From the NCBI GenBank assembly GCA_963734115.1, contig CAVTFV010000008.1, positions 211,581-275,580 of the forward strand: DNA of 64,000 nt, given 5' to 3'. This document shows positions 9,712-40,593 of this stretch, one piece after another; position 1 is the stretch's first letter; the number at the start of each line of letters is the position of its first letter. The notes below the pieces were generated by a model. It had not been told where the DNA came from. It saw only the letters and a list, made by a program, of their open reading frames with translations, and made no database searches. The DNA comes from an uncultured Acidobacteriota bacterium (GTDB lineage: Bacteria; Actinomycetota; Acidimicrobiia; Spongiisociales; ZC4RG35). The position numbers and the translations under genes are program-made.

Positions 9712-10470
9712 TCAGATCACCTTCCTCTCGGAGAGGAGGGTGACGATCGCCTGATGCGCCTCCCCGTCGTCCTCGATCTTTTGCCCGCCTGTGCGCTCTG
9801 GGGCGTCGACGATAGAGAGGACGAGTTGCTCCGGGGCGCGCTTCGCTCCGAGATCTCCCATCGAGAGTGTCTCGATGGGCTTCTTCTTGGCGTCCATGAT
9901 CCCTTTGAACGTCGGGTAACGAGGCTCGACGACGCCGGCCGTGACGGACACGACAGCGGGGAGGTCCGCGGTCACGACGTCGTATCCGGCCACAGTCTGG
10001 CGGTGGATTGTCACCGTGCCGTCACCGGTCTCGACTTGGGTCGCGTAGGTGAGTGCCGGCACTCCGAGGATCTCGGCCAGCATCTGGGGCACGACGCCGG
10101 AGTAGCCATCGGTGGACTCAGTGCCGGCAATGACCAGATCGAATTCATTGCGGCCGATCGCCGCTGCCAACACCCTCGCTGTCGTCAGGGCGTCCGACCC
10201 TCTGAGGGATCCGTCTTCGATGAGGATCGCATCGTCTGCTCCCATCGCCAGCGCCTGCCGGATTCCCTGCCCGGTGCCGGACGGGCCCATGCTCACGACG
10301 GTCACGGTCCCGTCGGTGGCCTGGGCGATCTGCAGACCCATCTCCACTCCGTACCGGTCAGTGTCATCGAGGATCTGCTCCTCGGGACGGATCAACCAGT
10401 TGCTGCCCTCCTCGAGACGATAGGGGGTAGCCGGGTCGGGGATTTGCTTTACGCAGACCATGACTTTCAT
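9712..10470 (-). CDS. etfB: electron transfer flavoprotein beta subunit
   Basis: 252 aa beginning MKVMVCVKQIPD. It lies directly upstream of etfA with 1-nt spacing. Confidence 0.9.
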   Translation of the reverse strand: MKVMVCVKQIPDPATPYRLEEGSNWLIRPEEQILDDTDRYGVEMGLQIAQATDGTVTVVSMGPSGTGQGIRQALAMGADDAILIEDGSLRGSDALTTARVLAAAIGRNEFDLVIAGTESTDGYSGVVPQMLAEILGVPALTYATQVETGDGTVTIHRQTVAGYDVVTADLPAVVSVTAGVVEPRYPTFKGIMDAKKKPIETLSMGDLGAKRAPEQLVLSIVDAPERTGGQKIEDDGEAHQAIVTLLSERKVI

Positions 10471-10572
10471 CCGCGGACCTTCATCTCCATGTCTTGGTGG
10501 TCAGATGCCGGGCGATGGTAACGAGCAGTCACCGCTCGGCTAATTGGACCGACCGTGGCCCCGCTCGTGTGA

Positions 10573-11877
10573 TTACGAGGCTTCGATTCGTTCCCTGACG
10601 AGGTCCTGTGGTTTCGGCGGCGTATCTTCGATGGCCCAAGCCGAGGCGAGGGATTCTTCTTGAGCCTGCCAGCGGGCGGAGTCGTTGTACTGAACCCGCG
10701 CCAGGGTTTGCCCGGCTGCGACCCGGTCCCCGACTTTGGCTTCGAGGCTGATGCCGACTCCTGTGTCGATCAGGTCCTCCTGATGCTCTCTCCCTGCCCC
10801 GAGCCTCGTGGCCACCACTCCGATCGTCAGGGCATCACAACGCGTCACAAAGCCTGCGTGAGGCGCGGTGACAGCCGCCTCCTGCGAGCATTTCGGGAGG
10901 AGGCCTGGATCCTCTATGAATGAGGGATCCCCACCCTGTGCGGCGACGACGTCGATCAGCTTCTGCAGTGCCTTGCCTGAGTCGATGGCATCCTCGAGAG
11001 CGGTCCGTCCCCCGTCGATGCCGGCCAATTCCATCATGACCTCGCCCAGGCTCATGGTGAGCTCGACGACATCGGCCGGGCCCTGCCCGCGGAGCACGTC
11101 GATCGATTCGCTCAACTCGTTGGCGTTCCCCACCTCCTGCCCGAGCGGCTGGTCCATCCCGGTGATCAAGGCGATCGTCCGCACTCCGTGTCTGGCACCG
11201 ATCTCGACCATGGTGTGGGCGAGCAGACGTGACCCTTCGAGGTCTTTCATGAAGGCGCCGGAGCCGGTCTTCACGTCGAGTACCAGTCCGTCGAGGCCTT
11301 CGGCCAGCTTCTTCGACATGATCGATGAAGATATGAGGGGCAGCGAGGGGACGGTGGCGGTGGCGTCGCGAAGGGCGTAGAGCTTTCGGTCGGCCGGGAC
11401 CAGAGTTTCGGTCTGTCCCGCGAACACCATGCCGTGATCGGAAAGCACTTCCCGAAATCGGTCGGGTTCAAGACGGGTGGTGAACCCGGGAATCGTCTCC
11501 AGCTTGTCGAGGGTCCCGCCGGTGTGCCCCAACCCACGCCCTGACATCATCGGCACCACCACCCCGACCGAGGCCACCAGTGGGGCGAGGGGGATCGAGA
11601 CCTTGTCGCCAACCCCGCCGGTCGAGTGCTTGTCGACCTTGGCTGCGCCGATGTCGCTCAGATCGAATACCTCTCCGGAATGGAGCATTGCGGTGGTCCA
11701 GGCAGCGAGCTCAGCGGAGCTCATGCCTTTGAGAAAGATGGCCATCGCCAGTGCCGCCATCTGGTAGTCCGGAACGTCCCCGGCGGTGTATCTCTCGATC
11801 AACCACTCGATGGCCTCCGGGCTCAGCTCCCGGCCGTCCCTCTTGGCCTCGATCAGCTCGACTGCGGTGAATGCCAT
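10573..11877 (-). CDS. deoA: thymidine / pyrimidine-nucleoside phosphorylase
   Basis: KHSTGGVGDKVSIPLAPLVAS and SGRGLGHTGGTLDKLE motifs. I placed the start at the internal ATG (MAFTAVELIEAKRDG). Confidence 0.85.
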   Translation of the reverse strand: MAFTAVELIEAKRDGRELSPEAIEWLIERYTAGDVPDYQMAALAMAIFLKGMSSAELAAWTTAMLHSGEVFDLSDIGAAKVDKHSTGGVGDKVSIPLAPLVASVGVVVPMMSGRGLGHTGGTLDKLETIPGFTTRLEPDRFREVLSDHGMVFAGQTETLVPADRKLYALRDATATVPSLPLISSSIMSKKLAEGLDGLVLDVKTGSGAFMKDLEGSRLLAHTMVEIGARHGVRTIALITGMDQPLGQEVGNANELSESIDVLRGQGPADVVELTMSLGEVMMELAGIDGGRTALEDAIDSGKALQKLIDVVAAQGGDPSFIEDPGLLPKCSQEAAVTAPHAGFVTRCDALTIGVVATRLGAGREHQEDLIDTGVGISLEAKVGDRVAAGQTLARVQYNDSARWQAQEESLASAWAIEDTPPKPQDLVRERIEAS

Positions 11878-11902
11878 GCGACGAGACGTTATCGACAGAC
11901 CA

Positions 11903-12544
11903 CTAGGCGGCGGTGGGACCGGTTGGGGCCAGCCCTCGAAGGGTGGTGGCGAGAGCCTGGCGGAACACGTCCCCTCCGGCATCGGGGGAGTCGATCAGCC
12001 AGCCAGACAGTGGTCGGCGAGCGGCGTGGGTCAGCTCCAGACTCACCGCACCATGGGCCGCAGTCCACAGCGTGTAGGCCGCGACGAGAGGGCTCTCGGC
12101 CACGATCATCTCTTGTTCCATTGCCTCGCTCACCGCCTCGAACACCATCGAGAACGTCGATTCGAGCACATCTGAACGCTGCTGGGGCGGCGGGTCGAAG
12201 CCGACGATTCGCTCGAACATCAACGAGTAAAGGGCGGGATTGGCCACAGCGAACCGGCGATAGGCGAGTCCCAGCTCGATGATCCGGCGCAGCGGGTCCC
12301 GGCGATGCTCGACCGTCGCCATGGCCAGGGCGAGACGCTCGAAACCAGCGGCGTACACCGCGTTGAGAAGTCCCACCTTGTCGCCGAATCGCGAATAGAC
12401 ACACATGGTCGAGACATGGGCGGCAGATGCGACCCGACGCAGGACCAAGGCCTCGGTGCCCTGGTCGGCGAGAAGACGGATCGCCGCTTCGATCAGCTCG
12501 GTCCGAACGGTGTCGCGTTCACGCGTGGGGGTTGCCATATTCAA
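11903..12544 (-). CDS. TetR-family transcriptional regulator
   Basis: N-terminal HTH (LVLRRVASAAHVSTMCVYSRFGDKVGLL). It is divergent from the Mo-oxidoreductase gene. Confidence 0.8.
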   Translation of the reverse strand: MNMATPTRERDTVRTELIEAAIRLLADQGTEALVLRRVASAAHVSTMCVYSRFGDKVGLLNAVYAAGFERLALAMATVEHRRDPLRRIIELGLAYRRFAVANPALYSLMFERIVGFDPPPQQRSDVLESTFSMVFEAVSEAMEQEMIVAESPLVAAYTLWTAAHGAVSLELTHAARRPLSGWLIDSPDAGGDVFRQALATTLRGLAPTGPTAA

Positions 12545-12554
12545 TAACGCGGAG

Positions 12555-12570
12555 TATAACGAGTGTTATA
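12555..12570. promoter_or_regulatory. inverted repeat TATAAC-GAGT-GTTATA in the tetR / Mo-oxidoreductase divergent intergenic region; candidate TetR operator
   Basis: Perfect 6-bp arms with a 4-nt spacer in a 60-bp divergent promoter region. Confidence 0.35.
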
Positions 12571-12605
12571 GCGGAAGTGTAGAGCAGTCATCAACGAGGA
12601 AGGTC

Positions 12606-13598
12606 GTGGGTCGCAGGACGAATCTAGCGCTGGCGGTGTTGCTGGTCACTGCAGTGGTCTCAGGTCTGGCCAGTCAGGCGATCGGGGTCGATTGGCCACT
12701 CGACACCGCCGTCATCCATGGGGCGGTCGCCCTGGCGATCCTGCTCTTGTCGCCGTGGAAGACCGGCATCGTCCGGCGTGGGTTGAGTAAGAAGCGACCG
12801 GGACGCGTCTTCTCTCTGGCCCTTCTCACAATCGTCCTGATCACGCTCGCCTCGGGTCTCCTCCATGCCCTCGGCGCGATCTCGCGCATCGGCCCGCTGA
12901 CGGTGATGCAGATCCATGTGGGAGGCGCCGTCCTCGCACTCGGTCTCGCCACCGACCATTTCCGGCGTCATCCGGTCACACCCAAGCACTTCGATGTCGA
13001 CCGGCGTGCATTTCTCCGGACCTCGGTCCTGTCCGTGGCCGCGGCCGGTATCTGGCTCGCCTGGGAGGGGACCCTCCAGGCGCTGGAGGCGCCGGGGAGG
13101 GAGCGCCGATTCACCGGCATGCACCAGAGAGGTTCGCATGACCCTGCCGGTCTGCCCACGACCTCCTGGCTCGATGACCGTGTGCCGACGATCGAAGGCA
13201 ATGAATGGGCAGCGGTCATCGCGGGACATGAACTGAGTCTGGCCGACCTCGAGACGATGCCTCAGGACACCTTCCCGGCCATCCTCGATTGCACCGGGGG
13301 CTGGTATTCGGAGCAAGAGTGGGCCGGAGTCAGACTCGATCGATTGATCGATCCCGCAGGCAGCCGCAGCTTCGTCGCCTGGTCGGCGACCGGGTATGCA
13401 CGAAGATTCCCGATCGCCGACCTGGAGAGCACATGGCTGGTGACACGTCTCGGCGGCGAGCCCCTGAGCCCGGGACACGGCTTCCCGGCTCGGATCGTGG
13501 CGCCGGCTAGACGTGGGTTCTGGTGGGTGAAGTGGGTAACCCGGATCGAGCCCTCACCGGTGCCGTGGTGGCTTCAGTCGCCGTTCCCGCTCACCTGA
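12606..13598 (+). CDS. membrane-anchored sulfite-oxidase-family molybdopterin oxidoreductase (MsrP/YedY-like catalytic domain fused to an N-terminal 4-helix His-containing membrane domain)
   Basis: C-terminal GHGFPARIVAP..RGFWWVKWVTRIE Moco-domain signature. N-terminal hydrophobic helices carry conserved His residues. GTG start with GGAAGG upstream. Confidence 0.75.
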   Translation: MGRRTNLALAVLLVTAVVSGLASQAIGVDWPLDTAVIHGAVALAILLLSPWKTGIVRRGLSKKRPGRVFSLALLTIVLITLASGLLHALGAISRIGPLTVMQIHVGGAVLALGLATDHFRRHPVTPKHFDVDRRAFLRTSVLSVAAAGIWLAWEGTLQALEAPGRERRFTGMHQRGSHDPAGLPTTSWLDDRVPTIEGNEWAAVIAGHELSLADLETMPQDTFPAILDCTGGWYSEQEWAGVRLDRLIDPAGSRSFVAWSATGYARRFPIADLESTWLVTRLGGEPLSPGHGFPARIVAPARRGFWWVKWVTRIEPSPVPWWLQSPFPLT

Positions 13599-13603
13599 CG
13601 AGG

Positions 13604-14440
13604 TCAGCCCCTCTCGACCGGGACGTTCACCAGCGATCCATACTCCGTCCAGGACCCGTCGTAGTTCTTGACATCCTCGTGGCCGAGGAGTTCGGTCAGG
13701 ACGAACCAAGTATGTGAGGACCGCTCGCCGATGCGGCAGTAGGCGATGATCTCGCCGCCAGTGACGCCGGCCCCCTCGTACAGCTCCTTCAACTCGTCCA
13801 CCGACTTGAAAGTGCCGTCCTCGTTGGCTGCCTTGCCCCACGGGATGTTCTTCGCCCCTGGCACGTGCCCCGCCACGTACGGCTGCTCCTGAGGGAGATG
13901 GTCCGGGGCGATCTTCTCGCCACTGAACTCCTCCGGTGAGCGGACGTCGACGAGCGTGGCCTGTCCCTGCACTTCGAGCACATGGTCCCGGAACGAGCGG
14001 ACCTCGGGTCGCTCTGCCCCGGTGATCGAGAACTCGGTCGGTGCGATGTTCGGGGACTCCGACTCGAGGGGCAACGAGTCGATCTGCCACTTCTTGCGGC
14101 CCCCGTCGAGCAGCTTCACGTTCTCGAAGCCGCGGTACTTGAGCAGCCAATAGGCATACGCGGCAAACCAATTGTTGTTGCCGCCGTAGAGGACGACCGT
14201 CGTGTCGGGACCGACCCCGGCCGCGGACAACAGCTTGCTGAAGCCCTCCTGGTCGAGATAGTCACGGCGCGTTGGGTGGTGGAGGTCGTCGGACCAGCTC
14301 CAGGCGATGGCGCCGGGGATGTGGTCTTTGTCGTAGACCGTGGCGTCCTCGTCTACCTCGATGACCCGGATGTTCGGGTCACTCAGATTGGCTTTGAGCC
14401 AGTCGGTGGTGACGAGGGCGTCGGGGTTTGCATAAGCCAT
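13604..14440 (-). CDS. sseA: thiosulfate/3-mercaptopyruvate sulfurtransferase (two rhodanese domains)
   Basis: 278 aa with two rhodanese domains and an active-site Cys in CRIGERSS. Confidence 0.85.
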   Translation of the reverse strand: MAYANPDALVTTDWLKANLSDPNIRVIEVDEDATVYDKDHIPGAIAWSWSDDLHHPTRRDYLDQEGFSKLLSAAGVGPDTTVVLYGGNNNWFAAYAYWLLKYRGFENVKLLDGGRKKWQIDSLPLESESPNIAPTEFSITGAERPEVRSFRDHVLEVQGQATLVDVRSPEEFSGEKIAPDHLPQEQPYVAGHVPGAKNIPWGKAANEDGTFKSVDELKELYEGAGVTGGEIIAYCRIGERSSHTWFVLTELLGHEDVKNYDGSWTEYGSLVNVPVERG

Positions 14441-14648: not shown

Positions 14649-14849
14649 TCACCCGAAGAAACCGACAACGATCAGGGCCACCACGATCGACATGAAACCG
14701 GCTACCAAGGTGAGCTGCATCCGATCGAAGCGATCCGACAGGTGACGGATCGCTGCACGGAACTCCGCCTGCAACCCGTCACGCACCGCGTAGAGATCGT
14801 CCCTGGTCGCAAAGGCGGTTTCGGGGCTCACCCTGCCACCTTGCCGCAT
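14649..14849 (-). CDS. small tail-anchored hypothetical protein
   Basis: About 66 aa starting MRQGGRV, with a C-terminal TM helix LTLVAGFMSIVVALIVVGFFG. It lies just downstream of argC. This is a weak call. Confidence 0.3.
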   Translation of the reverse strand: MRQGGRVSPETAFATRDDLYAVRDGLQAEFRAAIRHLSDRFDRMQLTLVAGFMSIVVALIVVGFFG

Positions 14850-14877: not shown

Positions 14878-15801
14878 TCAGTTGAGGCCCTCGAACTCGG
14901 GCAGACCCAAGGCCAGGTTGATGTTCTGCAACGCCTGCACCGCCGCCCCCTTGAGCAGATTGTCCTCGGCGGCGATAACCACTGCGTTGTGGCCATCGGC
15001 GCTGGTCTCGAATCCACCGACAATCACGCCCTGGTGTTCCGCCCCGTCTCTCAATTCCGGGATCGTGTTCCGGATCTCGATCAGTGGCTCCTCGCCGTAC
15101 ATCTCCTCATAGCGCGCCATGATCTCGATAGAGGTCATAGCCCGACCCAAGGGGATGTGGGCCGTCACGAGGAGACCACGGAAAGCCGGGTGGACGTGGG
15201 GGATGAACCGCACCGGGATCCCGAGATGTCTGACCGTCTCCCGCTCGTGGTTGTGTCCCACCAGCTTGTACGGCATCAGATTGTCTCGAAGTTGGTCGGG
15301 ATCGTTGCGCGGTCCGGGCGTGGTCCCCGCGCCGGAGTACCCGGAAACCCCGAACACCGCCGGCACGCCGGAGATGGCCTCGAGTAGGGGAGCGAGCGCG
15401 ATCTGGGTTGCAGTGGCGTAGCACCCCGGGTTGGCGATCCGCCGCGCCCCGTTCAGCTTCTCCCGGAAAAGCTCTGGCAGACCGTACGCCCAGGTGTCGT
15501 CGAATCGATGATCCGCGGAGATATCGACGATCACGGTCTCTTCGTCGATGCCGTCCACATAGGGGTCGCCGGCACCATCGGGGAGGGCCAGGACCACAAC
15601 GTCCAGGTCGCGCCCCGCCAGATCCTCAGAACCGATCGACTCGTAGCGGACGTCATCCAGCCCTGGCACTGGCTCACCGGCCAGTTCCCGGGACGCGGCG
15701 AAGACGAGCTCTAGAGACGGTTGATCCCTGATCAACCGCACCAACTCCGCTCCAGTGTGGCCGCGGGCTCCCACCACGCCAACGCGGTAAGAGTCACTCA
15801 T
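14878..15801 (-). CDS. argC: N-acetyl-gamma-glutamyl-phosphate reductase
   Basis: Start MSDSYRVGVVGARGHTG, active-site GCYATA. The ATG overlaps the stop of the upstream gene (ATGA). Confidence 0.9.
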   Translation of the reverse strand: MSDSYRVGVVGARGHTGAELVRLIRDQPSLELVFAASRELAGEPVPGLDDVRYESIGSEDLAGRDLDVVVLALPDGAGDPYVDGIDEETVIVDISADHRFDDTWAYGLPELFREKLNGARRIANPGCYATATQIALAPLLEAISGVPAVFGVSGYSGAGTTPGPRNDPDQLRDNLMPYKLVGHNHERETVRHLGIPVRFIPHVHPAFRGLLVTAHIPLGRAMTSIEIMARYEEMYGEEPLIEIRNTIPELRDGAEHQGVIVGGFETSADGHNAVVIAAEDNLLKGAAVQALQNINLALGLPEFEGLN

Positions 15802-17143
15802 CGTCGTCGCCGACGAAGGATGGGGGCAGGGTCGCGATCGACTCGACACGGGGTGCGATGCGGTCGAAGTTCGTCTCGCCTTTCCAGAATACGGTCCACG
15901 GCCCACGCTTCACGGAGCCATCGGCCTCGTCGACATAGAAGGAGTTGAACCGATTGTCGGTCCGCGACCGCCAGTAGAGCACAGGGTGATCGGCGATCAG
16001 CTGTGCCCAGACGGTCCTGGCCAGCCCCTCACCACGGGCGTCCTCGAGGATGGCGAACTTGTCCAGGTACGAGACGTCGCCGACACGGCTGACGATGGCC
16101 CCGGCTCTGAGGCTCTCCGATAGATAGGCGCTGTGCAGGTCGAGGTGCTGCCACCACCCTTCTTTCAAAGGCCGCCCGAATGCCTCCTCGACCAGCTTGA
16201 CCACCTGACTCCCGTCGATCGAGTCGGGATCGGTGATTCGATCGATGAGCTCTCCCTTCCGCACCAGAGTGCCCGACCCGCCATGGGTGAAAAGCTCTTT
16301 GACCAGGCCCGACGGGGTGGTGATGGAGACGGAGGTGGAAAGCGGAGTGTCGTCCAGCAGCCGTTTGATCTCGGCCAGCTTTAGCCGCATCCCGGAGTGG
16401 ACCCAGTCCTGGGTCATGAGGTGGTCGTAGTCGGAGGCGAGGTTGATCGACTCGATCGGCCGCGCATCGTCGTCGAGGAGGCCACCGACATCGACCAGGA
16501 AGATGATCTTCAGGGGCTGCACCGCATGTACGAGCGCTCGGGTCGCTGCGTCGGCGTTCATGTTGACGATCTGCCCGCCCGGGGCGACACCGAGACAGGT
16601 CAGGATGGGAATCGCACCGGAATCGACGATGGAGCGGATGAGGGCGATGTGCACCTCCGTCGGCTCGCCGACGAGCCCGTACTTGTCCCGGTCGACGTAG
16701 TCGGCTTCGAAGGCGCCGGCCGTGAGACCGTGGGCGGCAACCCCCTGCTCCCTTATCGCCTCGACGAGGAGGATGTTCTGCTCGATGAAGGTGTCGCGGG
16801 CCGCGTCGAGCACGTCGGGCTCGGTGACTCTGAGCCCGTCGATCCTGCGGCTCTCGATCCCACGCTGGTCGAGTGCACGGTCCAGCTGCGTGCCGCCACC
16901 GTGAATCACGATCGGGGTCAGCCCGACGGTATGGAGAAAGGCCAGGGCAGCGGCCGTCTCTTCCAGATGCTCGGCGAGGATCGCTCCACCGATCTTGATC
17001 ACGGCGAAACGTGACCGGTCAACTTCGGAGAACCGTTGCAGGTAGGAGCGGATCTCCCTCCCATCACTCATGTTGGAGAGGAGATGGACGATGGTCTGGC
17101 GCACGTCCCGGCTCTGTGAAGCCGGAACCCGATCTTCGCTCAT
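15794..17143 (-). CDS. argA: ArgA-type N-acetylglutamate synthase with fused amino-acid-kinase and GNAT domains (possibly bifunctional NAGS/NAGK)
   Basis: AAK domain (FAVIKIGGAIL, IVIHGGGTQLD) followed by a C-terminal acetyltransferase domain. I placed the start at the internal ATG (MSEDRVPASQ). Confidence 0.8.
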   Translation of the reverse strand: MSEDRVPASQSRDVRQTIVHLLSNMSDGREIRSYLQRFSEVDRSRFAVIKIGGAILAEHLEETAAALAFLHTVGLTPIVIHGGGTQLDRALDQRGIESRRIDGLRVTEPDVLDAARDTFIEQNILLVEAIREQGVAAHGLTAGAFEADYVDRDKYGLVGEPTEVHIALIRSIVDSGAIPILTCLGVAPGGQIVNMNADAATRALVHAVQPLKIIFLVDVGGLLDDDARPIESINLASDYDHLMTQDWVHSGMRLKLAEIKRLLDDTPLSTSVSITTPSGLVKELFTHGGSGTLVRKGELIDRITDPDSIDGSQVVKLVEEAFGRPLKEGWWQHLDLHSAYLSESLRAGAIVSRVGDVSYLDKFAILEDARGEGLARTVWAQLIADHPVLYWRSRTDNRFNSFYVDEADGSVKRGPWTVFWKGETNFDRIAPRVESIATLPPSFVGDDDE

Positions 17144-18138
17144 TGCCCGATCAGATTGGTCATGATCGCTTTCTGGACGTGGAGACGGTTCTCGGCTTCG
17201 TCGTAGGCCATGCAGCTCGAGCTGTCGAACACGTCGTCGGTCATGATGACGTTGCGTCTCATCGGGAGGCAGTGGCTCACCACCGCATCGCTTGTCATCG
17301 CCATCTTGCGCGAGTCGACGATGAAATCCTGGTACTTGTCCCGGATCGGCTTTTCCTCCTCCCACCGCCCGAAGAAAGGGATCGCTCCCCAGCTCTTGGC
17401 GTACACGACATCGGCTCCCTCGTAGCCGGTCTCGATGTCATAGGTCACGGTCACGCTTCTCCCGTTTGCCCCTGCATCGCGGGTGGCGATGTTCATGTAC
17501 CGGTCGTCGAGCAGAAAATCCTCCGTCGGGCAGAGCAGGGTGACGTTCATCCCGAACTTGGCGGCGATCAGGAGTGCAGAATTTGCCACCGCTGTGTTCA
17601 ATGGTTTGGGGTGGTAGCTCCAGGTCAGCAGATAGCGCTTGCCGTCGAGTGGCCCGAGACGCTCTTGGAGGGCCATGACGTGGGCCAGCTCCTGACAGGG
17701 ATGGGTGATGGTCTCCATGTTGATGACGGGAACGTCGGCGTGCGTGGCGAAGGCCTGGAGGATGGTGTCCTTGCGGTCCTCCTCCCAGTTCTCGAATTTG
17801 GGAAACGCCCTGATCCCGATCAGGTCGCAGTAACGGGAGAGGACCTTGGCCGCCTCTTTGACGTGCTCCTCGGCGTCATCGAGCATGATCGCCCCGTCTT
17901 CGAACTCGAGCGGCCACATACCGCCGGAGGGGGAGAGCACGACTGCGTGCCCTCCCAGCTGGTTGGCGCCGACGTCGAAGGACGTGCGCGTTCGCAGCGA
18001 GTTGTTGAGGAAGAGCAGGGCGACGGTCTTCCCCTCGAGTGCCTTGCCATATGGTGATTCCTTGAGACGGCGCCCCTCGTCAACCATCGACTGAAGCTCG
18101 GGTCGGGTCCAATCGAAGGTGTTCAGGAAGTGGCGCAT
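17140..18138 (-). CDS. argF: N-acyl-ornithine (AOTCase/SOTCase-like) carbamoyltransferase
   Basis: SLRTRTS carbamoyl-phosphate motif, HPCQ and HCLP motifs. It lacks the DxxxSMG ornithine-binding motif of classical OTCase. I placed the start at the internal ATG (MRHFLNTFDW). Confidence 0.8.
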   Translation of the reverse strand: MRHFLNTFDWTRPELQSMVDEGRRLKESPYGKALEGKTVALLFLNNSLRTRTSFDVGANQLGGHAVVLSPSGGMWPLEFEDGAIMLDDAEEHVKEAAKVLSRYCDLIGIRAFPKFENWEEDRKDTILQAFATHADVPVINMETITHPCQELAHVMALQERLGPLDGKRYLLTWSYHPKPLNTAVANSALLIAAKFGMNVTLLCPTEDFLLDDRYMNIATRDAGANGRSVTVTYDIETGYEGADVVYAKSWGAIPFFGRWEEEKPIRDKYQDFIVDSRKMAMTSDAVVSHCLPMRRNVIMTDDVFDSSSCMAYDEAENRLHVQKAIMTNLIGQ

Positions 18139-18332
18139 CGTCGCAGTTTGATTGGGCAAACCGCGAAATCCAAGAGAGCTGGCATTGCCTTGGAGCGGCA
18201 GCCCCGGCCGACCGGCGTCTGTTCGCCCTGAGGTGTGGGGCGGGGCGAACTTGAACCCCTGGAGGAGTGAGGGTTGCCGAAGGGCAAAGTCGGCCGGCAA
18301 TCAAGGCAGCCGCCACTCGACGGCAAGTCTCG

Positions 18333-19670
18333 CTACCCGCGTTGGGTCTCGTAACCCTTCTCCGCCCACTCTGTGATGCCCCCGGTGATGCTGTGGGCGT
18401 CCCGATAGCCGAGTGAGTTGATGTAGAGCACCCCAGGCAGGGAGATGTTGCCACGGGCGCAGACGATCAGCACCGGGGTGTCGAGACCTGCGGGCAGCTG
18501 GTCCTGGTTGTCCGGTAGCTCCATGAGAGGGATGTTGATGGCTCCCGGGATGTGCTCCTGAGCGAACTCCTCGGCCGATCTGACATCGACCACGAAGGGC
18601 CTCTCTGCCTCCCACCGGTCGTGGGCCGCTTCGGCATCGACGGTGAGATGGGGGTTGTGCCGGGTGTGCTCGATGATGGCGTCGAACAGCTCTTCCCGGC
18701 GGCTCTTGGCCCGAGGCAGCGCCGTTGGAGCCAGCCCGGGGATGTGCCTGGCCATCGACGAGGCGTACTTGAAGGCGTTGTCCGGGAACATCACGACGAC
18801 CCTGGTCCCGGGCGCATCGGGAACCATCGCCAGGGCGCCGGCGAGAGCCATCCCCGAGCTCGGCCCGGCAGGGATGCTCTCCTCGCGGTTGAGTCGCAAC
18901 GTAAGCGCGTAGGCGTCCTCGTTGCCGATCTCGATCATCCCGTCGTATTCATCGGGGAGGAAGAACTCGGTCTGCTTGAGCTGGCGGATGCTGCGCACTC
19001 CGGGGATGTCGTGGCCCTCGCCCGGGTGGACCCCGATGACCTGCACGCTGGAGCTTTGCTCCTTGAGGAACCGCCCGGTACCCGTGATCGTGCCGCAGGT
19101 CCCCATCCCGGCCACGAAATGGGTGATCGCCCCGTCCATCTGACGCCAGATCTCCGGCCCGGTGGTCCGATAGTGGGCATCGGGGTTCGACGGGTTCCGG
19201 TACTGGTTCAGCATGAGGAAGTCCGGCTTCTCGGCGATCTCCGTCGCCCGGGCGATCGCACCCTCGGGTGCCCACGGAGCGGGGCAGAGGTCGTCCTCCA
19301 ACTCCTCGACGTTGGCACCGAAGAATCGGAGCATCGTCCGCTTCTCGATGGGGATGGCGCTGGACAGCGGAGTGGTCAGGTCATAGCCGAGGAGATTGCC
19401 CATCATGACCAGGCCGAGACCGGTGTTGCCTGACGTTGGCTCGACCAGATCTTCGTCGGTCAGTTCACCCTGCTCCCGGGCCTGCTGGATCATGTTGGAG
19501 GCGATTCGGTCCTTGACGGAGCCGAACGGGTTGTACCACTCGAGCTTGACGTAGACCTCGGTGTGCTGGAACGGGACAACGTGGTTGAGCTTGACTATCG
19601 GAGTCGGGTTCTCGGCGTTCGAGAGCAGCCCGAGCATCGAGTCGTAGATGCGGCGTGAGTGGTCGTTCAA
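18333..19670 (-). CDS. cysteine synthase (PLP fold-type II, CysK/CysM-like) fused to a C-terminal rhodanese domain
   Basis: N-terminal region with the catalytic Lys in PFGSVKDRIA and EPTSGNTGLGL. C-terminal region FVVDVRSAEEFAQEHIPGAINIP...VCARGNIS with the rhodanese catalytic Cys. TTG start. Confidence 0.85.
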   Translation of the reverse strand: MNDHSRRIYDSMLGLLSNAENPTPIVKLNHVVPFQHTEVYVKLEWYNPFGSVKDRIASNMIQQAREQGELTDEDLVEPTSGNTGLGLVMMGNLLGYDLTTPLSSAIPIEKRTMLRFFGANVEELEDDLCPAPWAPEGAIARATEIAEKPDFLMLNQYRNPSNPDAHYRTTGPEIWRQMDGAITHFVAGMGTCGTITGTGRFLKEQSSSVQVIGVHPGEGHDIPGVRSIRQLKQTEFFLPDEYDGMIEIGNEDAYALTLRLNREESIPAGPSSGMALAGALAMVPDAPGTRVVVMFPDNAFKYASSMARHIPGLAPTALPRAKSRREELFDAIIEHTRHNPHLTVDAEAAHDRWEAERPFVVDVRSAEEFAQEHIPGAINIPLMELPDNQDQLPAGLDTPVLIVCARGNISLPGVLYINSLGYRDAHSITGGITEWAEKGYETQRG

Positions 19671-19731: not shown

Positions 19732-20358
19732 TTACTCCCGGAATCCGAACTCCACCTGGAGTGTTACCGTCACCGATGATGTCCCCGGCTGGATCGGGGT
19801 CGATGCTCTCTCAGGCGCCATGTCGGCAGCCATCATCCTCGGCATCGGCAGCACCGGACCCTGGATCGTCTCAGTTATGGAGGTCGCCTTACCGAGCGTG
19901 TGCCCGGATAGGGCCGCCAGTTGCTCTGCCTTGGCCTTGGCGTCGTTCCAGGCCGCTTCCCGCGCCCTTGCCAGGAGTGACGTCTCGTCGGCGACGCCGA
20001 AGGTGAGGCCGTTGACCCTGGTCTCGTCGCCCCCGGCGGAGGCTATGGAGTCGAGCAGTGGGCCGGTGGTTGCGATGTCACGAAGCTTGGCTCGGACGGT
20101 GTTGCTCACTCGATAACCCAGCAACCGCTGGCTGTTGGTGGAGTAGTCGTACTCGGGGCGGATGGAGTATTCGGTGGTCGCCATGTCGTCGGCGGCAATA
20201 CCACCCGCGGTGAGGGCCGAGGACACAGCCTCCGCCCGTTCCGCTGCAATCCGCGTGGCCTCCTGAACTGTGTCGGAGAGGGCCGAGACACCGACATCTA
20301 ATTCGACGATGTCCGGGGCGGCGCTTGCCTCCCCGGCAGCTGAAACCGCGATACCCAC
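19732..20358 (-). CDS. SIMPL/DUF541-domain protein (no signal peptide)
   Basis: LLGYRVSNTVRAKLRD...AWNDAKAKAEQLA core. It is a paralog of the next gene but lacks the N-terminal roughly 58 aa. Confidence 0.75.
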   Translation of the reverse strand: MGIAVSAAGEASAAPDIVELDVGVSALSDTVQEATRIAAERAEAVSSALTAGGIAADDMATTEYSIRPEYDYSTNSQRLLGYRVSNTVRAKLRDIATTGPLLDSIASAGGDETRVNGLTFGVADETSLLARAREAAWNDAKAKAEQLAALSGHTLGKATSITETIQGPVLPMPRMMAADMAPERASTPIQPGTSSVTVTLQVEFGFRE

Positions 20359-20397
20359 AAACGACCTCCAGATCGCGCCTGCGGTGGAGCCTATCCC

Positions 20398-21177
20398 TCA
20401 GCCGGCGAGGCCGAACTGGACCTGGAGTGTGATGGTCACAGCCGACGTCCCCGGCTCGATCGGGGTCTCGACCGCCCGCTCGGCCGCTGCATCAGCGGCG
20501 TAGGGGATCGGAATCGGAGGCATGCTCACAGTCTCGGTGATCGTGGTTGCCTCGCCCAGCGTCTGCCCGGAGAGCTCGGCGAGCTGGCTGGCCTTGGTCA
20601 TCGCGTCATTCCATGCCGCCTCCCTGGCGGCGGCGACCAATTCGTCGTTGTCCTCGATGCTGAATGAGAGCCCGTTGACTACGACATCGTCCCCACCTGC
20701 GACAGCGGCTGCGTCCAGGACTGCGCCAGTGCTGTCGAGGTCCCGGATCTTCGCTTCGACCGTGTTGCTGACCCGATACCCGATGAGCCGCTGTTCGTTG
20801 CTCGAGTAGTCGTATTCGGGGTATATCGAATAGTCGGTGGTGGTGATGTCCTCTTCGGCGACACCGTTGGAGGTCAGTGAATCGATGAGTGCCTGGGCCT
20901 TCTCAGCCGCCGTGGTGGCTGCCTGGTCGACGGTCTCACCGAGGACCGAGACACCGAGGCCGACCTCGACGGTGTCTGGCGTGCCGGTCACCTCGCCCAT
21001 CCCCGATACCGAGATGCCCGAGGTTGCCTCTTGCGATGTGTTCACCGTGATCTCTTGTGGCGTCGACCCGGCTGCGGTGCCACAGGCGGCGAGAATGACG
21101 GCCAGGCCGCCAATAAGTGCGATGTTGCGAGGGCGTGTGGTCCATGTCATGCCGCTTGGACGAGTGGGCGGCCTCAA
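20398..21177 (-). CDS. SIMPL/DUF541-domain lipoprotein
   Basis: Signal peptide with lipobox (LAVILAACG), then LIGYRVSNTVEAKIRD...AWNDAMTKASQLA. Confidence 0.8.
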   Translation of the reverse strand: MRPPTRPSGMTWTTRPRNIALIGGLAVILAACGTAAGSTPQEITVNTSQEATSGISVSGMGEVTGTPDTVEVGLGVSVLGETVDQAATTAAEKAQALIDSLTSNGVAEEDITTTDYSIYPEYDYSSNEQRLIGYRVSNTVEAKIRDLDSTGAVLDAAAVAGGDDVVVNGLSFSIEDNDELVAAAREAAWNDAMTKASQLAELSGQTLGEATTITETVSMPPIPIPYAADAAAERAVETPIEPGTSAVTITLQVQFGLAG

Positions 21178-24852: not shown

Positions 24853-25929
24853 TTATTCGTCCTCGGGTCGTTGCTTGTGGACCCTTCCCTCGATCCCGTG
24901 GAGCGAGAGACCGGTGCCATGTCCATAGCGAACCATGGTCATCTCGGCCAGGATGGAGACCGCCACCTCCTGCGGGCTCTCGGCGCCGATATCTAGGCCT
25001 ACCGGGCCCCGCACACGGGCTATGTCCTCCTCCGAGAAACCCATCTCATGCAGTCGCCCGACTCTGAGATCCTGCGTTCGACGGCTCCCCATGCATCCGA
25101 TGTAGCGCACCGGGCTCTTCAGACGCGGCCTCCAGCACCGGGTCTTCGTGGGGCGGGGCATGAGACAGGATGACCACCCATGTACGCCGATCGAGATCGA
25201 CTTGGCCGATGACCCTCTCCGGCCACCCGACCAGGACCCGGGCGGTAGGGAAGCGCTCCGGTGTGGCGAAGGCGCCCCGCGAGTCGATCACCGTCACCCG
25301 GTAGCCCATCTGGCCGGCGAAGTTGGCGAGAGCCTGACCGATATGGACCGCGCCCACGATCAGCATCTCCTGGGGCGGGGCGAGCGACTCGATGAACACC
25401 CCATGGGGTGGGTACTCCATGGCACGGTGCTGCTCATGATCCATGAGCACCAGGGCATCCGCCGTCACATCGGCGGCGATCTCCGATGGGAGCTCCCCGG
25501 ACACCTGCTGACCGGTGGAATCGAGAACCACCTTGGACCCCAATGATGGTCCGTCGACGAAGGTGACGACTGACCCGTACTCCTCGCGATCGAGGATGCC
25601 CTGGACCGCCTCGAGCGGCTTCACCAGGGCTCGATGAAGACGTCGATGGTCCCGCCGCAGGCCATGCCTACTTCGAAGGCGTCGTCGTCGGCGATCCCGT
25701 AGGTGACGGTCTTCGGCTTGCCCGACTCGATCACCTCTTGGGCGTGGAGGAAGACATCGTTCTCGACGCACCCGCCACTGACCGACCCTTCCATGTCTCC
25801 GGCATCCGAGACCAGGAACTTGGAGCCCTCGGGCCTGGGGGCGCTGCCCTGGACCCGGATCACCGTTGCGACGGCGACCTTCTTCCCTTCCGATGCCCAT
25901 CGGTTGCGCACTTCGATCTGATTTCTCAT
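24853..25929 (-). pseudogene. XdhC/CoxI-family accessory protein with two compensating frameshifts
   Basis: N-terminal domain (ORF 25621..25929, ...[12 protein letters not shown]). The middle Rossmann part (VKPLEAV...[29 protein letters not shown]) is in another frame. The C-terminal part ([10 protein letters not shown]...[19 protein letters not shown]) returns to the first frame. The first break maps to a C-run (FIEP-L-VKPLE is restored by adding one C). Confidence 0.7.
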
Positions 25930-27038
25930 CGCCTCGCTCCAGCCACTGAATCGAGCACCCGCACCACCCCCCGGAAGTCACTGACGCTAGCGGCGGGCAA
26001 TAGCCGATCGATGCTCGGCATCACCGCCTGCATGCCACGCGTCAGCGGCTGATATGAGGCCCTCGCCGCGAGGGGGTTGAGCCAGATCACCTGATGGACC
26101 GATCGGGCGAGTCGGGCCATTTCCGACGAGAGGACGGCGGGGTCGCCGCAATCCCAGCCGTCGGAGAGAATCATCACGACCGGGCCGCCCCTGGCCAGAC
26201 GACGGCTCCACCGTCGATTCCACTCGGCGAGAGCGTCACCGATCTGGGTCCCCCCCGACCAGTCGGTCACTCGATCGGCGACGCGGGCCAGTGCGGCCTT
26301 GGTGTCCCGACGGCGCATGTCCTCGGTGATGCGGCTGAGATGGGTGGAGAAGGTGAAGATCTCGACTTCACGCAGCCGACGCTGGGCAGCGTGGGCGAAT
26401 ACGAGGAATATGTCGGCGTACTTCTCCATCGACCCGGAGATGTCGGCGATGATGATGAGGGGGCGCTCCTTCCGCCGGCGCTGCTTCCAGCTCATAGTCA
26501 TCATGTCCCCGGTCGGTCCCACCGCGTCCCGCAGGGTGCGGCGCAGGTCGGGCCTGACCCCATCGCCGGGTGTCCATCGCCGGGTCCTGTAGTCGGTGGG
26601 ATGCCACATCATCGTCATCACCAGGCGTCGCGCCTCCTGGAGGTCCTCGTCATCGAGATCGGCGAAATCCCTGGTTGAGATCCTCTCCACCGCCGAGGCG
26701 CCACCCTGGTCGGTGACCGGCGCCACGCTGGACCCGGCCGAGCCCTGGATCGCATAACTCGACGCGTCGGTGCCCGGCTCATCCGGGTGCCGGTCGACCC
26801 ATGATGGCAGGAGGCGCCCGAAGAAGATCTCGAACTCCCGGTCGAACACCGGGATCTGATCGGGGTCGGTGACGGTCAACGAGCGCAGAGCGGCTTCGGC
26901 CTGCGACCGCCGGCTCATGTCGACCATGGAGAGGGCGCGGGCCATGTCGGTGGTCTGGTCGGAGGTGACCGTGAGACCGCGATTACGCAGGGCCGCTGAG
27001 AAGAGACTCAATTGGTCGATCAGCCCGGGCCGGCTCAT
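25926..27038 (-). CDS. coxE: VWA-domain CoxE-like accessory protein
   Basis: DISGSM MIDAS motif, C-terminal VWA. The start ATG overlaps the coxD stop (ATGA). Confidence 0.85.
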
Positions 27039-27913
27039 CCCACCAAGCTGTCGACTCCGGCGGACCGGACCATGTCGATGTCGTCCTTGTACTTGAGCAC
27101 GACGCCGATCGTGCGGTCGATCGTTGCCGGAGACAGCTCGCCCGCCTCCAGCAAACGCAACGACTCTGCCCAATCGAGTGTTTCTGCCACTCCGGGGGGC
27201 TTGAAGAGCTCCATCTCCCTGAGCCTCCTCATCGCCTCGGCCAGAGATACCGCCAGACGCCCCTCGAGATCGGGCACCTTGCGGATGATGATCTCGGCCT
27301 CCTTGGCCGCGGTTGGATAGTCGATCCAGTGATACACACAACGACGTTTGAGGGCGTCGTGTATCTCCCGGGTGCGGTTCGACGTGAGGACGACGATCGG
27401 CCTGCTCAGTGCCTTGATCGTTCCGATCTCGGGAATCGTTATCTGGAAATCGGACAGCAACTCGAGGAGAAAGGCCTCGAACTCCTCGTCCGCCCGGTCC
27501 AACTCGTCGATGAGAAGCACCGGACGGTGCCCCTCGGTGCTGGCCTCGATCGCCTGGAGCAGGGGACGAGCGATCAGGTAGTCCCGACTCATTATGTCGT
27601 CGGGGGTGGCTTCAGCGCCCTGTCCCCTTGCCTCGAGAAGGCGGATCGCCATCATCTGGCGGGCGTAATCCCACTCGTATAGCGCCTGGCCGACGTCCAG
27701 ACCCTCATAGCACTGGAGACGGATGAGCTCGGTCCCGCCCATGGCCGCCAGGACCTTGGCCACCTCGGTCTTGCCAACTCCGGCCTCCCCCTCCAGGAAA
27801 AGCGGTCTCCCCAGTTGAACTGCGAGGTGGATGGCCACTACGAGGCTCTCGTTGGCGAAGTAGTCCTGCTCGTCGAGACGTTTCTCGAGCTCGCCGATCG
27901 TGTCGGGGATCAC
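27035..27913 (-). CDS. coxD: MoxR-family AAA+ ATPase (CoxD-like)
   Basis: Walker A GEAGVGKT, Walker B LLIDELDRAD, and the MoxR C-terminal domain. Confidence 0.9.
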   Translation of the reverse strand: MIPDTIGELEKRLDEQDYFANESLVVAIHLAVQLGRPLFLEGEAGVGKTEVAKVLAAMGGTELIRLQCYEGLDVGQALYEWDYARQMMAIRLLEARGQGAEATPDDIMSRDYLIARPLLQAIEASTEGHRPVLLIDELDRADEEFEAFLLELLSDFQITIPEIGTIKALSRPIVVLTSNRTREIHDALKRRCVYHWIDYPTAAKEAEIIIRKVPDLEGRLAVSLAEAMRRLREMELFKPPGVAETLDWAESLRLLEAGELSPATIDRTIGVVLKYKDDIDMVRSAGVDSLVG

Positions 27914-27948
27914 CGGATGAAGCCTAAACGTCGCCGTACAATCGGTCT

Positions 27949-28872
27949 GTGTACGGGGTGGCGCTCACGGTTCTCGCCTGTCTCCGCTCGGGAACCCGCG
28001 CCGACGTGGCGTGGCTGGTCGAGGCGGAAGGATTGCCCGTGACGGACTGGTCCGATGCAGTCGTGTTCACCCCTGGCGGCGGCCGGATCGGAGGATTGGC
28101 GGGCGGCGCAGTGGATGGGCAGCTGGCCGACGAGGCGGGTCGAAGGGACGTCGGTCGACTGGTCGATATCGAGGTGAGCGAGATCGACGCCTTGATCGCC
28201 GGCCTGTCGTCGGCCGGCTCCGCAAGATGCCTGCTCGTGCCGGCAGACACGCTTCCTCGAGAACTCTGGGACCTGGCGGTCGCACGGGAGCCGATCTGTC
28301 TGATCTGCAATGTCGAAGGCGGCGAAGTGGGAGACGTCAGCGTCTACACGACCGCCACGGCGGCGGGTGGCGGGGAAATCGTCGAGGGTTTGTTCGCTGC
28401 CGGCAAGAGCGGGTCGACAGTCACCGGAGATCAGGTGATCTCTGTGTTTCGGGCAGTGCCTCAGTTGGTCGTGGTGGGGGACACCGACGTCGCCACCGCT
28501 CTGGTCGAGCTGGCATCCCGGATCGGCTGGAACGCCCGCCTGGCGGCCGACTCCGGTTCGGCCACCGGCATGATCGCCACGCTGTCGGGTCAGGACAAGG
28601 TCGTGGTGACCGCGCACGATCTCGAGTTTGCGGGGACTGCGCTCAAGGCTGCCCTGGAGAGCGATGCCGGCTACATCGGGGCGATGGGCGCTCGACGGAT
28701 GCAGGAGAACCGTGCCGACTGGCTCGCCTACCGGGGGGTGACGGATCTCTCTCGAATCCATGGTCCCGCCGGACTCGACATCGGCGCCGAAACACCGGCC
28801 GAGATCGCTGTCTCGATCCTCGCCGAAGCGATCGCAGAGAACGCTGGGAATCATGTCGTTTCCAGCAGCTAG
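27949..28872 (+). CDS. XdhC/CoxI-family molybdoenzyme maturation factor (intact)
   Basis: 307 aa with the C-terminal YIGAMGARRM...GLDIGAETPAEIAVSILAE signature. Divergent from coxD. Confidence 0.85.
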   Translation: MYGVALTVLACLRSGTRADVAWLVEAEGLPVTDWSDAVVFTPGGGRIGGLAGGAVDGQLADEAGRRDVGRLVDIEVSEIDALIAGLSSAGSARCLLVPADTLPRELWDLAVAREPICLICNVEGGEVGDVSVYTTATAAGGGEIVEGLFAAGKSGSTVTGDQVISVFRAVPQLVVVGDTDVATALVELASRIGWNARLAADSGSATGMIATLSGQDKVVVTAHDLEFAGTALKAALESDAGYIGAMGARRMQENRADWLAYRGVTDLSRIHGPAGLDIGAETPAEIAVSILAEAIAENAGNHVVSSS

Positions 28873-28937
28873 CCATGGAGTACACAGGTGACCGTCACTA
28901 CACTCGATGATGGACGAGACCTTCCCGGGAGGACTGG

Positions 28938-29189: not shown

Positions 29190-29230
29190 CCCTGGGCAAC
29201 GACGACCTCTCACCCACGCGGGATCACGCC

Positions 29231-38173: not shown

Positions 38174-38208
38174 CTCGATCATCCTCCACCCATCGGCAGG
38201 CTGGGCAC

Positions 38209-40593
<2,385 letters not shown>

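Follow-up and report, generated by a model that had tools for sequence, protein, structure and literature searches.

A three-gene arginine locus in an acidimicrobial genome

The window, by which we mean the whole 64-kb stretch of DNA analysed here, comes from an uncultured soil member of the class Acidimicrobiia. Sequence analysis identified three genes on the minus strand in the order argF'-argA/B-argC, preceded by a promoter-like element (Table 1). Together they run from the argF' start at 18138 to the argC stop at 14878, exactly the interval that a first-pass annotation had singled out. The ATG of argA/B overlaps the argF' stop codon (ATGA), and the start of argC overlaps the argA/B stop by 8 nt (ATGAGTGA), overlaps that indicate translational coupling of all three genes. 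That annotation had read the module as argC, a fused N-acetylglutamate synthase and kinase (NAGS/K) and an N-acyl-ornithine carbamoyltransferase, and family scores together with full-length matches to solved N-acetylornithine carbamoyltransferase (AOTCase) and NAGS/K enzymes bore this out.

Table 1. Features of the arginine locus, with positions in the window
Feature	Position	Strand	Length (aa)	Predicted product or basis
argF'	17140..18138	(-)	332	N-acetyl-L-ornithine carbamoyltransferase (AOTCase), knotted transcarbamylase
argA/B	15794..17143	(-)	449	Bifunctional N-acetylglutamate synthase/kinase, vertebrate-like NAGS/K
argC	14878..15801	(-)	307 (short form)	N-acetyl-gamma-glutamyl-phosphate reductase
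Promoter-like element TTGGATTTCGCG-N8-AATCAAACTG	18144..18173	(-)		Conservation among Acidimicrobiia-type loci

Every named relative of the Ffh protein encoded in the window is an 'Acidimicrobiia bacterium'. The synteny had been described as Mycobacterium-like; the gene order smc-ftsY...ffh-rpsP-rimM-trmD-rplS-lepB...dprA-xerC is real, but it is a broadly conserved backbone only, and the host is no relative of Mycobacterium.

The carbamoyltransferase belongs to the AOTCase subfamily

The argF' product contains the Pfam domains OTCace_N and OTCace and scored 533 bits against the NCBIfam model NF003384, 'N-acetylornithine carbamoyltransferase' (cut-off 288), with lower scores for all OTCase, PTCase, ATCase and YgeW models. 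The AOTCase of Xanthomonas campestris (Xc; PDB 3kzc) matched it over the full length at 488 bits and 63% identity, with one 2-residue indel. All of the transcarbamylase core motifs, SxRT, HPxQ and HxLP as defined previously (PMC4581275), are present as SLRTR, HPCQ and HCLP, as is the beta4 arginine, R112. The signatures of the knotted subgroup, the proline-rich loop HPKPLNT and the Trp77 of the extended 80's loop, are identical to those of Xc, and the alignment has no indel relative to Xc in the 80's or 120's loops, in keeping with a predicted knot. Among the aligned positions listed (active-site, carbamoyl-phosphate-binding, proline-rich-loop and other), 25 of 26 are identical to Xc, and the shared residues include Glu92, Asn185, Glu144, Lys252, Ser253, His293 and Arg112. 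The two enzymes differ in that the carboxylated Lys302, Thr178 and SMRTR of Xc are Ile, Ser and SLRTR in the window. Both genes lie within an arginine-biosynthesis cluster, although the Xanthomonas operon has eight genes (PMC1865377) and the window cluster three, and the window host belongs to a Gram-positive phylum.

Other transcarbamylase classes were considered and rejected. All models of classical anabolic OTCases fell below cut-off (best 208 bits against 306; cut-offs at least 280), and OTCase sequences reached at most 148 bits, the score of the Mycobacterium tuberculosis enzyme. As the first-pass annotation had noted, SLRTR is present (NNSLRTRTSF) and the DxxxSMG loop is absent, with YAKSWG at the place of SMG. 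It had proposed an acetyl- or succinyl-ornithine or YgeW-like clade, of which the AOTCase part holds, with acetyl most likely, and the YgeW part does not: YgeW models gave 75 bits with partial coverage against cut-offs of 453 and 500, and they span about 391-396 positions, as against 332 aa in the argF' product; YgeW proteins are further marked by additional helices at both termini and by a long 240's loop.

Lys302 is replaced in the acidimicrobial enzymes

According to a review (PMC4581275), AOTCases are distinguished by Glu92, Asn185 and Lys302 (numbering of the X. campestris enzyme), where SOTCases have A/S/P/V/Q, Pro and V/I/E, respectively. A check of these specificity residues, proposed in the first-pass annotation, gave a divided answer. 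Glu92 is present in the window sequence and in each of the 80 related loci, and Asn185, likewise in the AOTCase state, occurs in every sequence compared; however, Lys302, the carboxylated lysine of the Xc enzyme, is replaced in the window by Ile (RRNVIMTD), a SOTCase-type state (PMC4581275). The replacement marks the group: 42 of the 45 Acidimicrobiia-type sequences (window included) have I or V at position 302, and Xc and all 36 alphaproteobacterial loci have Lys. It co-varies with T178S, which adjoins the proline-rich loop. With two of the three signature residues and the overall similarity on its side, we classify the argF' product as a variant of the AOTCase subfamily. Retention of Glu92 and Asn185 makes acetyl the most likely acyl group of the substrate, while the SOTCase-type state at position 302 means that specificity or kinetics may differ from those of Xc.

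Could the enzyme instead take N-succinylornithine, or a mixed or other acyl substrate, as part of a Bacteroides-like succinylated or hybrid route? Ile302 is among the SOTCase-type states, and its near-fixation with T178S in the Acidimicrobiia-type sequences would fit a shift of substrate. We nevertheless consider this very unlikely, because residues 92 and 185 are in the AOTCase state throughout, and because translational coupling ties its gene to that of a NAGS/K, an enzyme that depends on acetyl-CoA and whose AcCoA P-loop is intact. The SOTCase of Bacteroides fragilis, also a knotted transcarbamylase, whose residue at the 302 equivalent is hydrophobic or other than Lys, matched at 173-176 bits, as against 488 for the Xc AOTCase, and of the three positions diagnostic for SOTCases only the third fits the window sequence. 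Shi et al. 2007 (Protein Sci 16:1689) are also said to have found that residue 92 alone swaps specificity; in their hands P90E reportedly converted the B. fragilis SOTCase to an AOTCase, even though that enzyme has no Lys at the 302 position.

A vertebrate-like NAGS/K and a short ArgC

The acetyltransferase domain noticed earlier at the C-terminal end of the kinase-fold gene was recovered as a NAT domain (PF04768, DUF619; residues 281-437) following an AA_kinase domain (PF00696; residues 47-264). The argA/B product scored 616 bits against NF003387 (cut-off 426), 515 bits against the NAGS/K of Maricaulis maris (PDB 3s7y) and 463 bits against that of X. campestris (PDB 3s6k), and is 56% identical to the M. 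maris enzyme over 431 ungapped residues. When functional residues from a published list (PMC3236213) were compared, 38 of the 40 checked were identical to M. maris. Substitutions comprise Thr436 to Ser and Leu437 to Phe, both conservative and in the glutamate pocket, and Gly369 to Ala in the P-loop, which the consensus [Q/R]xxGx[G/A] allows. The catalytic, ATP-binding and NAG-binding residues of the kinase are all identical (M. maris K44, D192, K249, G47, G77, G97, R99, N190, G215 and G245); in window numbering, the kinase residues include K50, D198 and K255, and the NAG-binding residues G103, R105 and N196. The one-residue Gly linker, Gly291 in M. maris, aligns with Gly297. On the synthase side, the NAT-domain motifs YLDKF and WRSR and the AcCoA P-loop RGEGLA are present, the catalytic Y403, S393 and N397 correspond to M. 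maris Tyr397, Ser387 and Asn391, and the arginine-binding motif E-L-F-(T/S)-x-x-G-x-G-T is intact as ELFTHGGSGT.

We assign the argA/B product to the vertebrate-like bifunctional NAGS/K type, with both activities predicted. Enzymes of this type are the proposed progenitors of vertebrate NAGS. The window protein shares with the M. maris (PDB 3s6g, 3s7y) and X. campestris (3s6k) enzymes the AAK plus NAT architecture and the co-occurrence with AOTCase, but its gene, in contrast to theirs, has argF' directly coupled on the upstream side and argC on the downstream side.

The name of the NCBIfam family is only 'acetylglutamate kinase', so the synthase function is hidden in automated annotation.

The argC product has Semialdhyde_dh and dimerisation domains, scored 276 bits against TIGR01850 (cut-off 233.6) and carries the active-site Cys motif NPGCY when aligned to Thermotoga ArgC. 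Solved ArgC structures in the PDB are more distant matches, with 141 bits at best.

A lineage-specific promoter-like element

Upstream of argF', the element reads as a -35 box TTGGAT, a 17-nt spacer and a -10 box CAAACT, followed by 6 nt to the argF' ATG, a spacing that implies a leaderless argF' mRNA. It occurs once in the 64-kb window, where none is expected by chance, and most of the 28 Acidimicrobiia-type loci examined keep it, including loci whose remaining intergenic DNA differs. It went unflagged in a generic scan for sigma-70 promoters, and we describe it as promoter-like on the strength of its conservation and layout. An inverted repeat within it, TTTGgATT / AATCAAA with an imperfect match, may serve as an operator.

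The block is conserved in Acidimicrobiia and related to alphaproteobacterial clusters

To what extent is this locus shared? In 43 other loci, argF' sits between the same host genes (ppc-upp-SIMPL ... PyNP), and argA/B and argC follow it wherever the contig reaches far enough. The first-pass annotation had called the module unusual for the genome; this did not stand, as at least 43 other related MAG species have the module as a fixed feature and its genes are already named by annotation pipelines. Its label of Xanthomonas-style was correct insofar as the X. campestris enzymes match, but the closest relatives outside the group are the marine or saline Alphaproteobacteria Parvularculaceae, Hyphococcus and Marinicaulis (AOTCase 73-80% identity), and the order argF'-argA/B-argC also holds in most alphaproteobacterial loci. 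In the clusters of these three groups, Aquisalinus and Amphiplicatus, the three genes share order and orientation with the window, and identity to the window proteins is 73-80% (AOTCase), 56-70% (NAGS/K) and 55-63% (ArgC). These clusters differ in that 0.1-2 kb of unrelated DNA or genes usually separate argF' from argA/B, Lys302 and Thr178 are kept, and Aquisalinus has no adjacent argC.

In neighbour-joining trees with one distant outgroup, the Acidimicrobiia formed one clade for each of the three genes. The AOTCase tree gave this clade a bootstrap of 76/100, with the Alphaproteobacteria monophyletic in 15/100 replicates. The operon has a GC content of 63.2% versus 64.9%, and its GC3 and dinucleotide signature are host-like, which points to a probably old acquisition as a block. 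We suggest that the block probably entered the lineage a single time, long ago and as one unit, either coming from an alphaproteobacterial lineage (for example, Parvularculaceae or Maricaulales) or being shared with one, and that it has probably been inherited vertically since.

Alphaproteobacterial homologues of up to 80% identity, as the closest outside the Acidimicrobiia, and conflicting phylum labels ('Acidobacteriota') on several source MAGs might also be explained by an error of assembly or binning that joined a piece of proteobacterial DNA to an actinobacterial contig. Such an artefact is effectively excluded by replicated synteny: 43 independent assemblies, made in different projects, show the same host-gene junctions, with long contigs of 0.4-2.6 Mb among them. 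The operon's GC, GC3 and dinucleotide signature also match the surrounding DNA, and the promoter-like element upstream is specific to the lineage.

A more far-reaching proposal, which we regard as rather doubtful, joins the history of the block to the change at position 302. The soil-Acidimicrobiia enzymes would form a distinct AOTCase subfamily in which the CO2-derived carboxy-lysine has been replaced (Ile for Lys302, together with a linked change of Thr178 to Ser), working without the Xanthomonas carboxylation switch or accepting a different or broader N-acyl-ornithine; and the NAGS/K-AOTCase-ArgC block would have crossed as a unit between Alphaproteobacteria and Actinomycetota, displacing the ArgJ cycle in the whole soil clade.

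The operon as part of a proposed N-acetylcitrulline route to arginine

We propose that argF'-argA/B-argC is very probably a biosynthetic operon of the N-acetylcitrulline variant of arginine synthesis, with its own probable promoter, gained anciently as a block. It would supply steps 1, 2 and 3 and the carbamoylation step. Following this scheme, NAGS/K would acetylate glutamate with acetyl-CoA, under predicted feedback inhibition of its synthase activity by arginine, and phosphorylate the product; ArgC would reduce the N-acetylglutamyl-phosphate; and AOTCase would convert N-acetylornithine, made by an ArgD encoded elsewhere, to N-acetylcitrulline. An ArgE-type deacetylase, ArgG and ArgH, also encoded elsewhere, would complete the pathway, whose completeness in this genome we assume. 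Transcription of the three genes would probably start at the operon's own conserved promoter and give a leaderless mRNA. The canonical actinobacterial pathway (argC-argJ-argB-argD-argF-argR in Mycobacterium and Corynebacterium) shares the ArgC chemistry and the N-acetylated intermediates up to N-acetylornithine. The route proposed for the window differs in that the fused NAGS/K replaces a short ArgB plus ArgJ, there is no ArgJ recycling, and carbamoylation precedes deacetylation; the M. tuberculosis enzymes match only distantly, OTCase at 148 bits, ArgB at 85 and ArgC at 111.

The acylated-citrulline route indicated by the first-pass annotation is supported by the AOTCase and NAGS/K matches and by published co-occurrence: genomes with NAGS/K also carry AOTCase, and the pair appears to co-evolve (PMC4490483). 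In Xanthomonas, acetylcitrulline is deacetylated by ArgE and argD is encoded elsewhere (PMC1865377). Some 50 other ORFs throughout the 64 kb were scanned with Pfam, and the scan found no ArgJ, aminotransferase class III, M20 deacetylase, ArgG, ArgH, OTCase or short ArgB, which agrees with the earlier observation that argJ, argD and argB are missing from the window. The flanks of four related loci that we inspected likewise had no argD, deacetylase, argG or argH.

Since our view of the genome is limited to 64 kb and the other arginine genes certainly lie outside it, the module might be redundant or auxiliary, a case already raised in the first-pass annotation, with a canonical actinobacterial argC-J-B-D-F cluster also in the genome and the operon serving, for example, stress-conditional provision of arginine or citrulline or the supply of precursors to another product. 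We think this unlikely. The module's own argC would be a pointless duplicate beside such a cluster, no secondary-metabolite genes flank the operon, and the fixed position has been kept across relatives diverged to ~74% identity in AOTCase and 61-63% in ArgC and NAGS/K, retention that implies long purifying selection. In the NAGS/K plus AOTCase organisms described so far, moreover, acetylcitrulline is the sole arginine route (PMC1865377, PMC4490483).

The biosynthetic reading of the operon does not overturn what is currently understood: both the pathway and its enzymes are known, public pipelines already name the genes, and what we describe extends the known acetylcitrulline pathway to a new group and is no new kind of system. 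Reviews describe the pairing of NAGS/K with AOTCase from just two groups, the Xanthomonadales and the marine Alphaproteobacteria (PMC4490483, PMC1865377); its range now includes a widespread, uncultured soil clade of Actinomycetota. In metabolic reconstructions from Acidimicrobiia MAGs, missing ArgJ, ArgB, ArgA or OTCase should not score arginine synthesis as incomplete. The block also offers a clean example of a co-adapted three-gene unit that would have moved between phyla, and the change of Lys302 to Ile with Thr178 to Ser a natural experiment on how essential the carboxylated lysine of AOTCase is.

Identity and layout of the arginine operon

The interval 14878-18138 is filled exactly by three minus-strand ORFs, argF', argA/B and argC, whose GC3 of 0.76–0.81 is what genuine genes show in this genome of 65% GC. 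The stop codon of argF' and the start of argA/B share an ATGA overlap (CAATGAGC), and argA/B and argC share an 8-nt overlap (GATGAGTGA). From these overlapping starts and stops it follows that the three genes are translationally coupled and form a single operon.

Features of the arginine operon and its surroundings, with flanking genes listed outward from the operon (bit scores are for NCBIfam models, against their cut-offs)
Feature	Place	Position	Strand	Length	Remarks
argF'	operon	18138..17140	-	332 aa	NF003384, N-acetylornithine carbamoyltransferase; 533 bits, cut-off 288
argA/B	operon	17143..15794	-	449 aa	kinase-acetyltransferase fusion; NF003387, long 'acetylglutamate kinase'; 616 bits, cut-off 426
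argC	operon	15801..14878	-	307 aa	TIGR01850; 276 bits, cut-off 233.6
Upstream element	directly upstream of argF' start	18173..18144	-	30 nt	
Small membrane ORF	argC-side flank (lower coordinates)	14649-14849	-	~66 aa	C-terminal hydrophobic helix; ~30 nt downstream of argC
Tandem-rhodanese sulfurtransferase	argC-side flank	13604-14440			
Molybdopterin oxidoreductase	argC-side flank	12405-13598			
TetR regulator	argC-side flank				
Pyrimidine-nucleoside phosphorylase	argC-side flank				
CysK/CysM-rhodanese fusion	argF'-side flank (higher coordinates)	18333-19670	-	445 aa	cysteine-synthase-like PLP enzyme (CysK/CysM family) with C-terminal rhodanese; under equivalog cut-offs
Two tandem SIMPL/DUF541 paralogues	argF'-side flank	19732-21177	-		second with lipoprotein-like N-terminus
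upp	argF'-side flank				
ppc	argF'-side flank				
Two AAA (MoxR/CoxD-like) + VWA CoxE pairs	near 1183-aa fusion	25926-31265			
Separate XdhC	near 1183-aa fusion	27928-28872			
CoxL-type fusion		37223-40774	-	1183 aa	molybdenum-hydroxylase large subunit (CoxL/xanthine-dehydrogenase type) + XdhC + YHS/TRASH metal-binding domain
Ffh		45068-46417	+	449 aa	

Pfam domains were OTCace_N and OTCace in argF', AA_kinase and NAT (PF04768) in argA/B, and both semialdehyde-dehydrogenase domains in argC. Compared with solved structures, the argF' product aligned from end to end with the N-acetylornithine transcarbamylase (AOTCase) of Xanthomonas campestris (488 bits, 63% identity), versus 175 bits for the N-succinylornithine transcarbamylase (SOTCase) of B. 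fragilis and at most 148 bits for ornithine carbamoyltransferases (OTCases). The transcarbamylase motifs described in the first-pass annotation are all borne out: SLRTR is found, DxxxSMG is absent and HCLP is kept. We rejected YgeW, OTCase, putrescine carbamoyltransferase (PTCase) and ATCase as identities for argF', as each NCBIfam model scored far under its own cut-off. The argA/B product aligned with the bifunctional enzyme NAGS/K (N-acetylglutamate synthase and kinase) of Maricaulis maris over 431 ungapped residues (515 bits, 56% identity) and with that of X. campestris at 463 bits, versus only 85 bits for M. tuberculosis ArgB.

Checked against the residue list of PMC3236213, the window NAGS/K conserves all residues for kinase catalysis, ATP binding and NAG binding, the AcCoA P-loop, the glutamate-binding motifs YLDKF and WRSR, and the catalytic Tyr, Ser and Asn; the glutamate pocket has two conservative changes only, T436S and L437F. 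It also keeps the arginine-binding motif (ELFTHGGSGT) and the Gly linker associated with inhibition, not activation, by arginine. For all products of the operon, the enzyme activities are predictions.

Substrate specificity of the transcarbamylase

We aligned the window AOTCase with homologues from 80 related loci, either Acidimicrobiia-type or alphaproteobacterial (L001-L080), and with the X. campestris sequence, whose numbering is used here. At 25 of 26 listed positions the window protein has the same residue as X. campestris. The positions come from the sites that bind carbamoyl phosphate and the second substrate, from the proline-rich loop and from a handful of other places in the alignment; Glu144, Lys252, Trp77, Glu92 and Asn185 are among them. 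AOTCases are separated from SOTCases by three residues, Glu92, Asn185 and Lys302, the SOTCase states being A/S/P/V/Q, P and V/I/E, respectively (PMC4581275). At position 302 the window protein has Ile (window residue 300, context RRNVIMTD), which is among the SOTCase states. Ile or Val occupies this position in 42/45 Acidimicrobiia-type sequences (window counted), and Lys in 36/36 alphaproteobacterial loci and in X. campestris; a Thr178 to Ser change co-varies perfectly with the substitution. According to Li et al. in 2010, Lys302 of the Xanthomonas enzyme is reportedly a post-translationally carboxylated lysine. Three loci (L058, L063 and L080) retain Lys302 and Thr178 and carry K182R instead.

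We conclude that the window transcarbamylase is predicted to be acetyl-specific, because residue 92 is said to be what chiefly sets the specificity (Shi et al. in 2007), because similarity to AOTCase far exceeds that to SOTCase, and because the coupled neighbour would make N-acetylglutamate from acetyl-CoA.

In one otherwise syntenic MAG (L053, ~10000-12340), the match to AOTCase begins late, by ~60 codons, and that to NAGS/K stops early, by ~75 codons, a pattern suggestive of indel errors or pseudogenisation in this assembly.

A conserved element upstream of argF'

The upstream element has the form TTGGATTTCGCG-N8-AATCAAACTG and ends 5 nt short of the argF' ATG. Of 28 related loci examined, most keep it, even with the rest of the spacer differing, and a motif search with the N8 gap found it once in the window; the -35 half searched alone in the window was not significant. 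Read as a promoter, which we infer and offer as a prediction, it comprises a -35 TTGGAT, a 17-nt spacer and a -10 CAAACT, with 6 nt to the ATG. No Shine-Dalgarno sequence precedes the argF' ATG, and the sequence suggests that the argF' transcript may be leaderless; leaderless transcripts are common in Actinomycetota. Since the element contains an imperfect inverted repeat, it is possibly also an operator. Scans with Rfam (gathering threshold) and for tRNAs, generic promoters and terminators were uninformative for the operon and its vicinity, where they showed neither a riboswitch or leader RNA nor a convincing terminator.

Genomic neighbourhood and host

Pfam scans of ~50 further ORFs across the 64 kb showed no other arginine gene, and so bore out the earlier statement that the window lacks argJ, argD and argB. 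Reading ORF N-termini in four loci, in the gaps for the more divergent Acidimicrobiia and also in alphaproteobacterial loci, we recognised none either. Sulfur-transfer genes lie on both sides of the arg block (the CysK/CysM-rhodanese fusion, the tandem rhodanese and the molybdopterin oxidoreductase); the CysK/CysM-rhodanese fusion, which adjoins the operon upstream, is found in closer relatives only (L001-L020), and SIMPL/DUF541 is apparently single-copy in deeper relatives. Genes for CoxG and a flavoprotein subunit lie near the 1183-aa CoxL-type fusion.

The first-pass annotation had described the host as having Mycobacterium-like synteny. The backbone behind this description is present (smc-ftsY ... 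ffh-rpsP-rimM-trmD-rplS-lepB ... yifB-dprA-xerC), but this gene order is conserved in general. Among relatives of the window Ffh, all those with a name are 'Acidimicrobiia bacterium'. Most close Ffh relatives (96-97% identical, 444 aa) cover just 88% of the window protein, reflecting either a differing C-terminal tail or masking of a low-complexity tail.

The nearest AOTCase homologues (98-74% identity) come from soil and environmental Acidimicrobiia MAGs, among which Microflora-Danica-type MAGs bear a conflicting 'Acidobacteriota' label. Twelve loci (L001, L003-L005, L008-L010, L021, L050, L053, L057 and L079) are from long-read soil MAGs deposited as 'uncultured Acidobacteriota bacterium'; they have gene order and 75-98% protein identity in common with Acidimicrobiia-labelled MAGs, and their phylum label looks wrong.

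Distribution and origin of the module

The same host genes flank argF' in 43 other loci, with argA/B and argC next wherever the contig extends. The next AOTCase relatives (73-80% identity) belong to the Alphaproteobacteria Aquisalinus, Hyphococcus, Marinicaulis, Parvularcula and Amphiplicatus, and most of these loci also have the argF'-argA/B-argC order. In neighbour-joining trees of all three genes, the Acidimicrobiia formed one clade per gene and the Alphaproteobacteria were paraphyletic; for AOTCase, bootstrap values were 76/100 for acidimicrobiial and 15/100 for alphaproteobacterial monophyly. The GC content and dinucleotide signature of the module are host-like. We rejected an assembly chimera on the replicated synteny together with this composition, and a recent transfer on the host-like composition and deep vertical conservation. 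Taking the trees, shared gene order and composition together, we favour one old block transfer, in either direction, between Acidimicrobiia and Alphaproteobacteria, followed by vertical inheritance.

In Xanthomonadales and marine Alphaproteobacteria, AOTCase and NAGS/K are established, as are the pairing of the two and the pathway (PMC1865377, PMC3236213, PMC4490483, PMC4581275). These four papers do not mention Actinobacteria, and full-text searches returned incidental matches only, with no paper that connects AOTCase with Acidimicrobiia or with Actinobacteria. Many homologues have already been named 'N-acetylornithine carbamoyltransferase' by IMG and NCBI annotation. By analogy with the organisms in which NAGS/K and AOTCase have been described, the acylated-citrulline pathway would be complete and the sole route to arginine in this host. 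Because enzymes, pairing and pathway alike are established elsewhere and homologues already bear the name, the operon is a known system whose host is new at the phylum level, and it has one notable variant in an active site.
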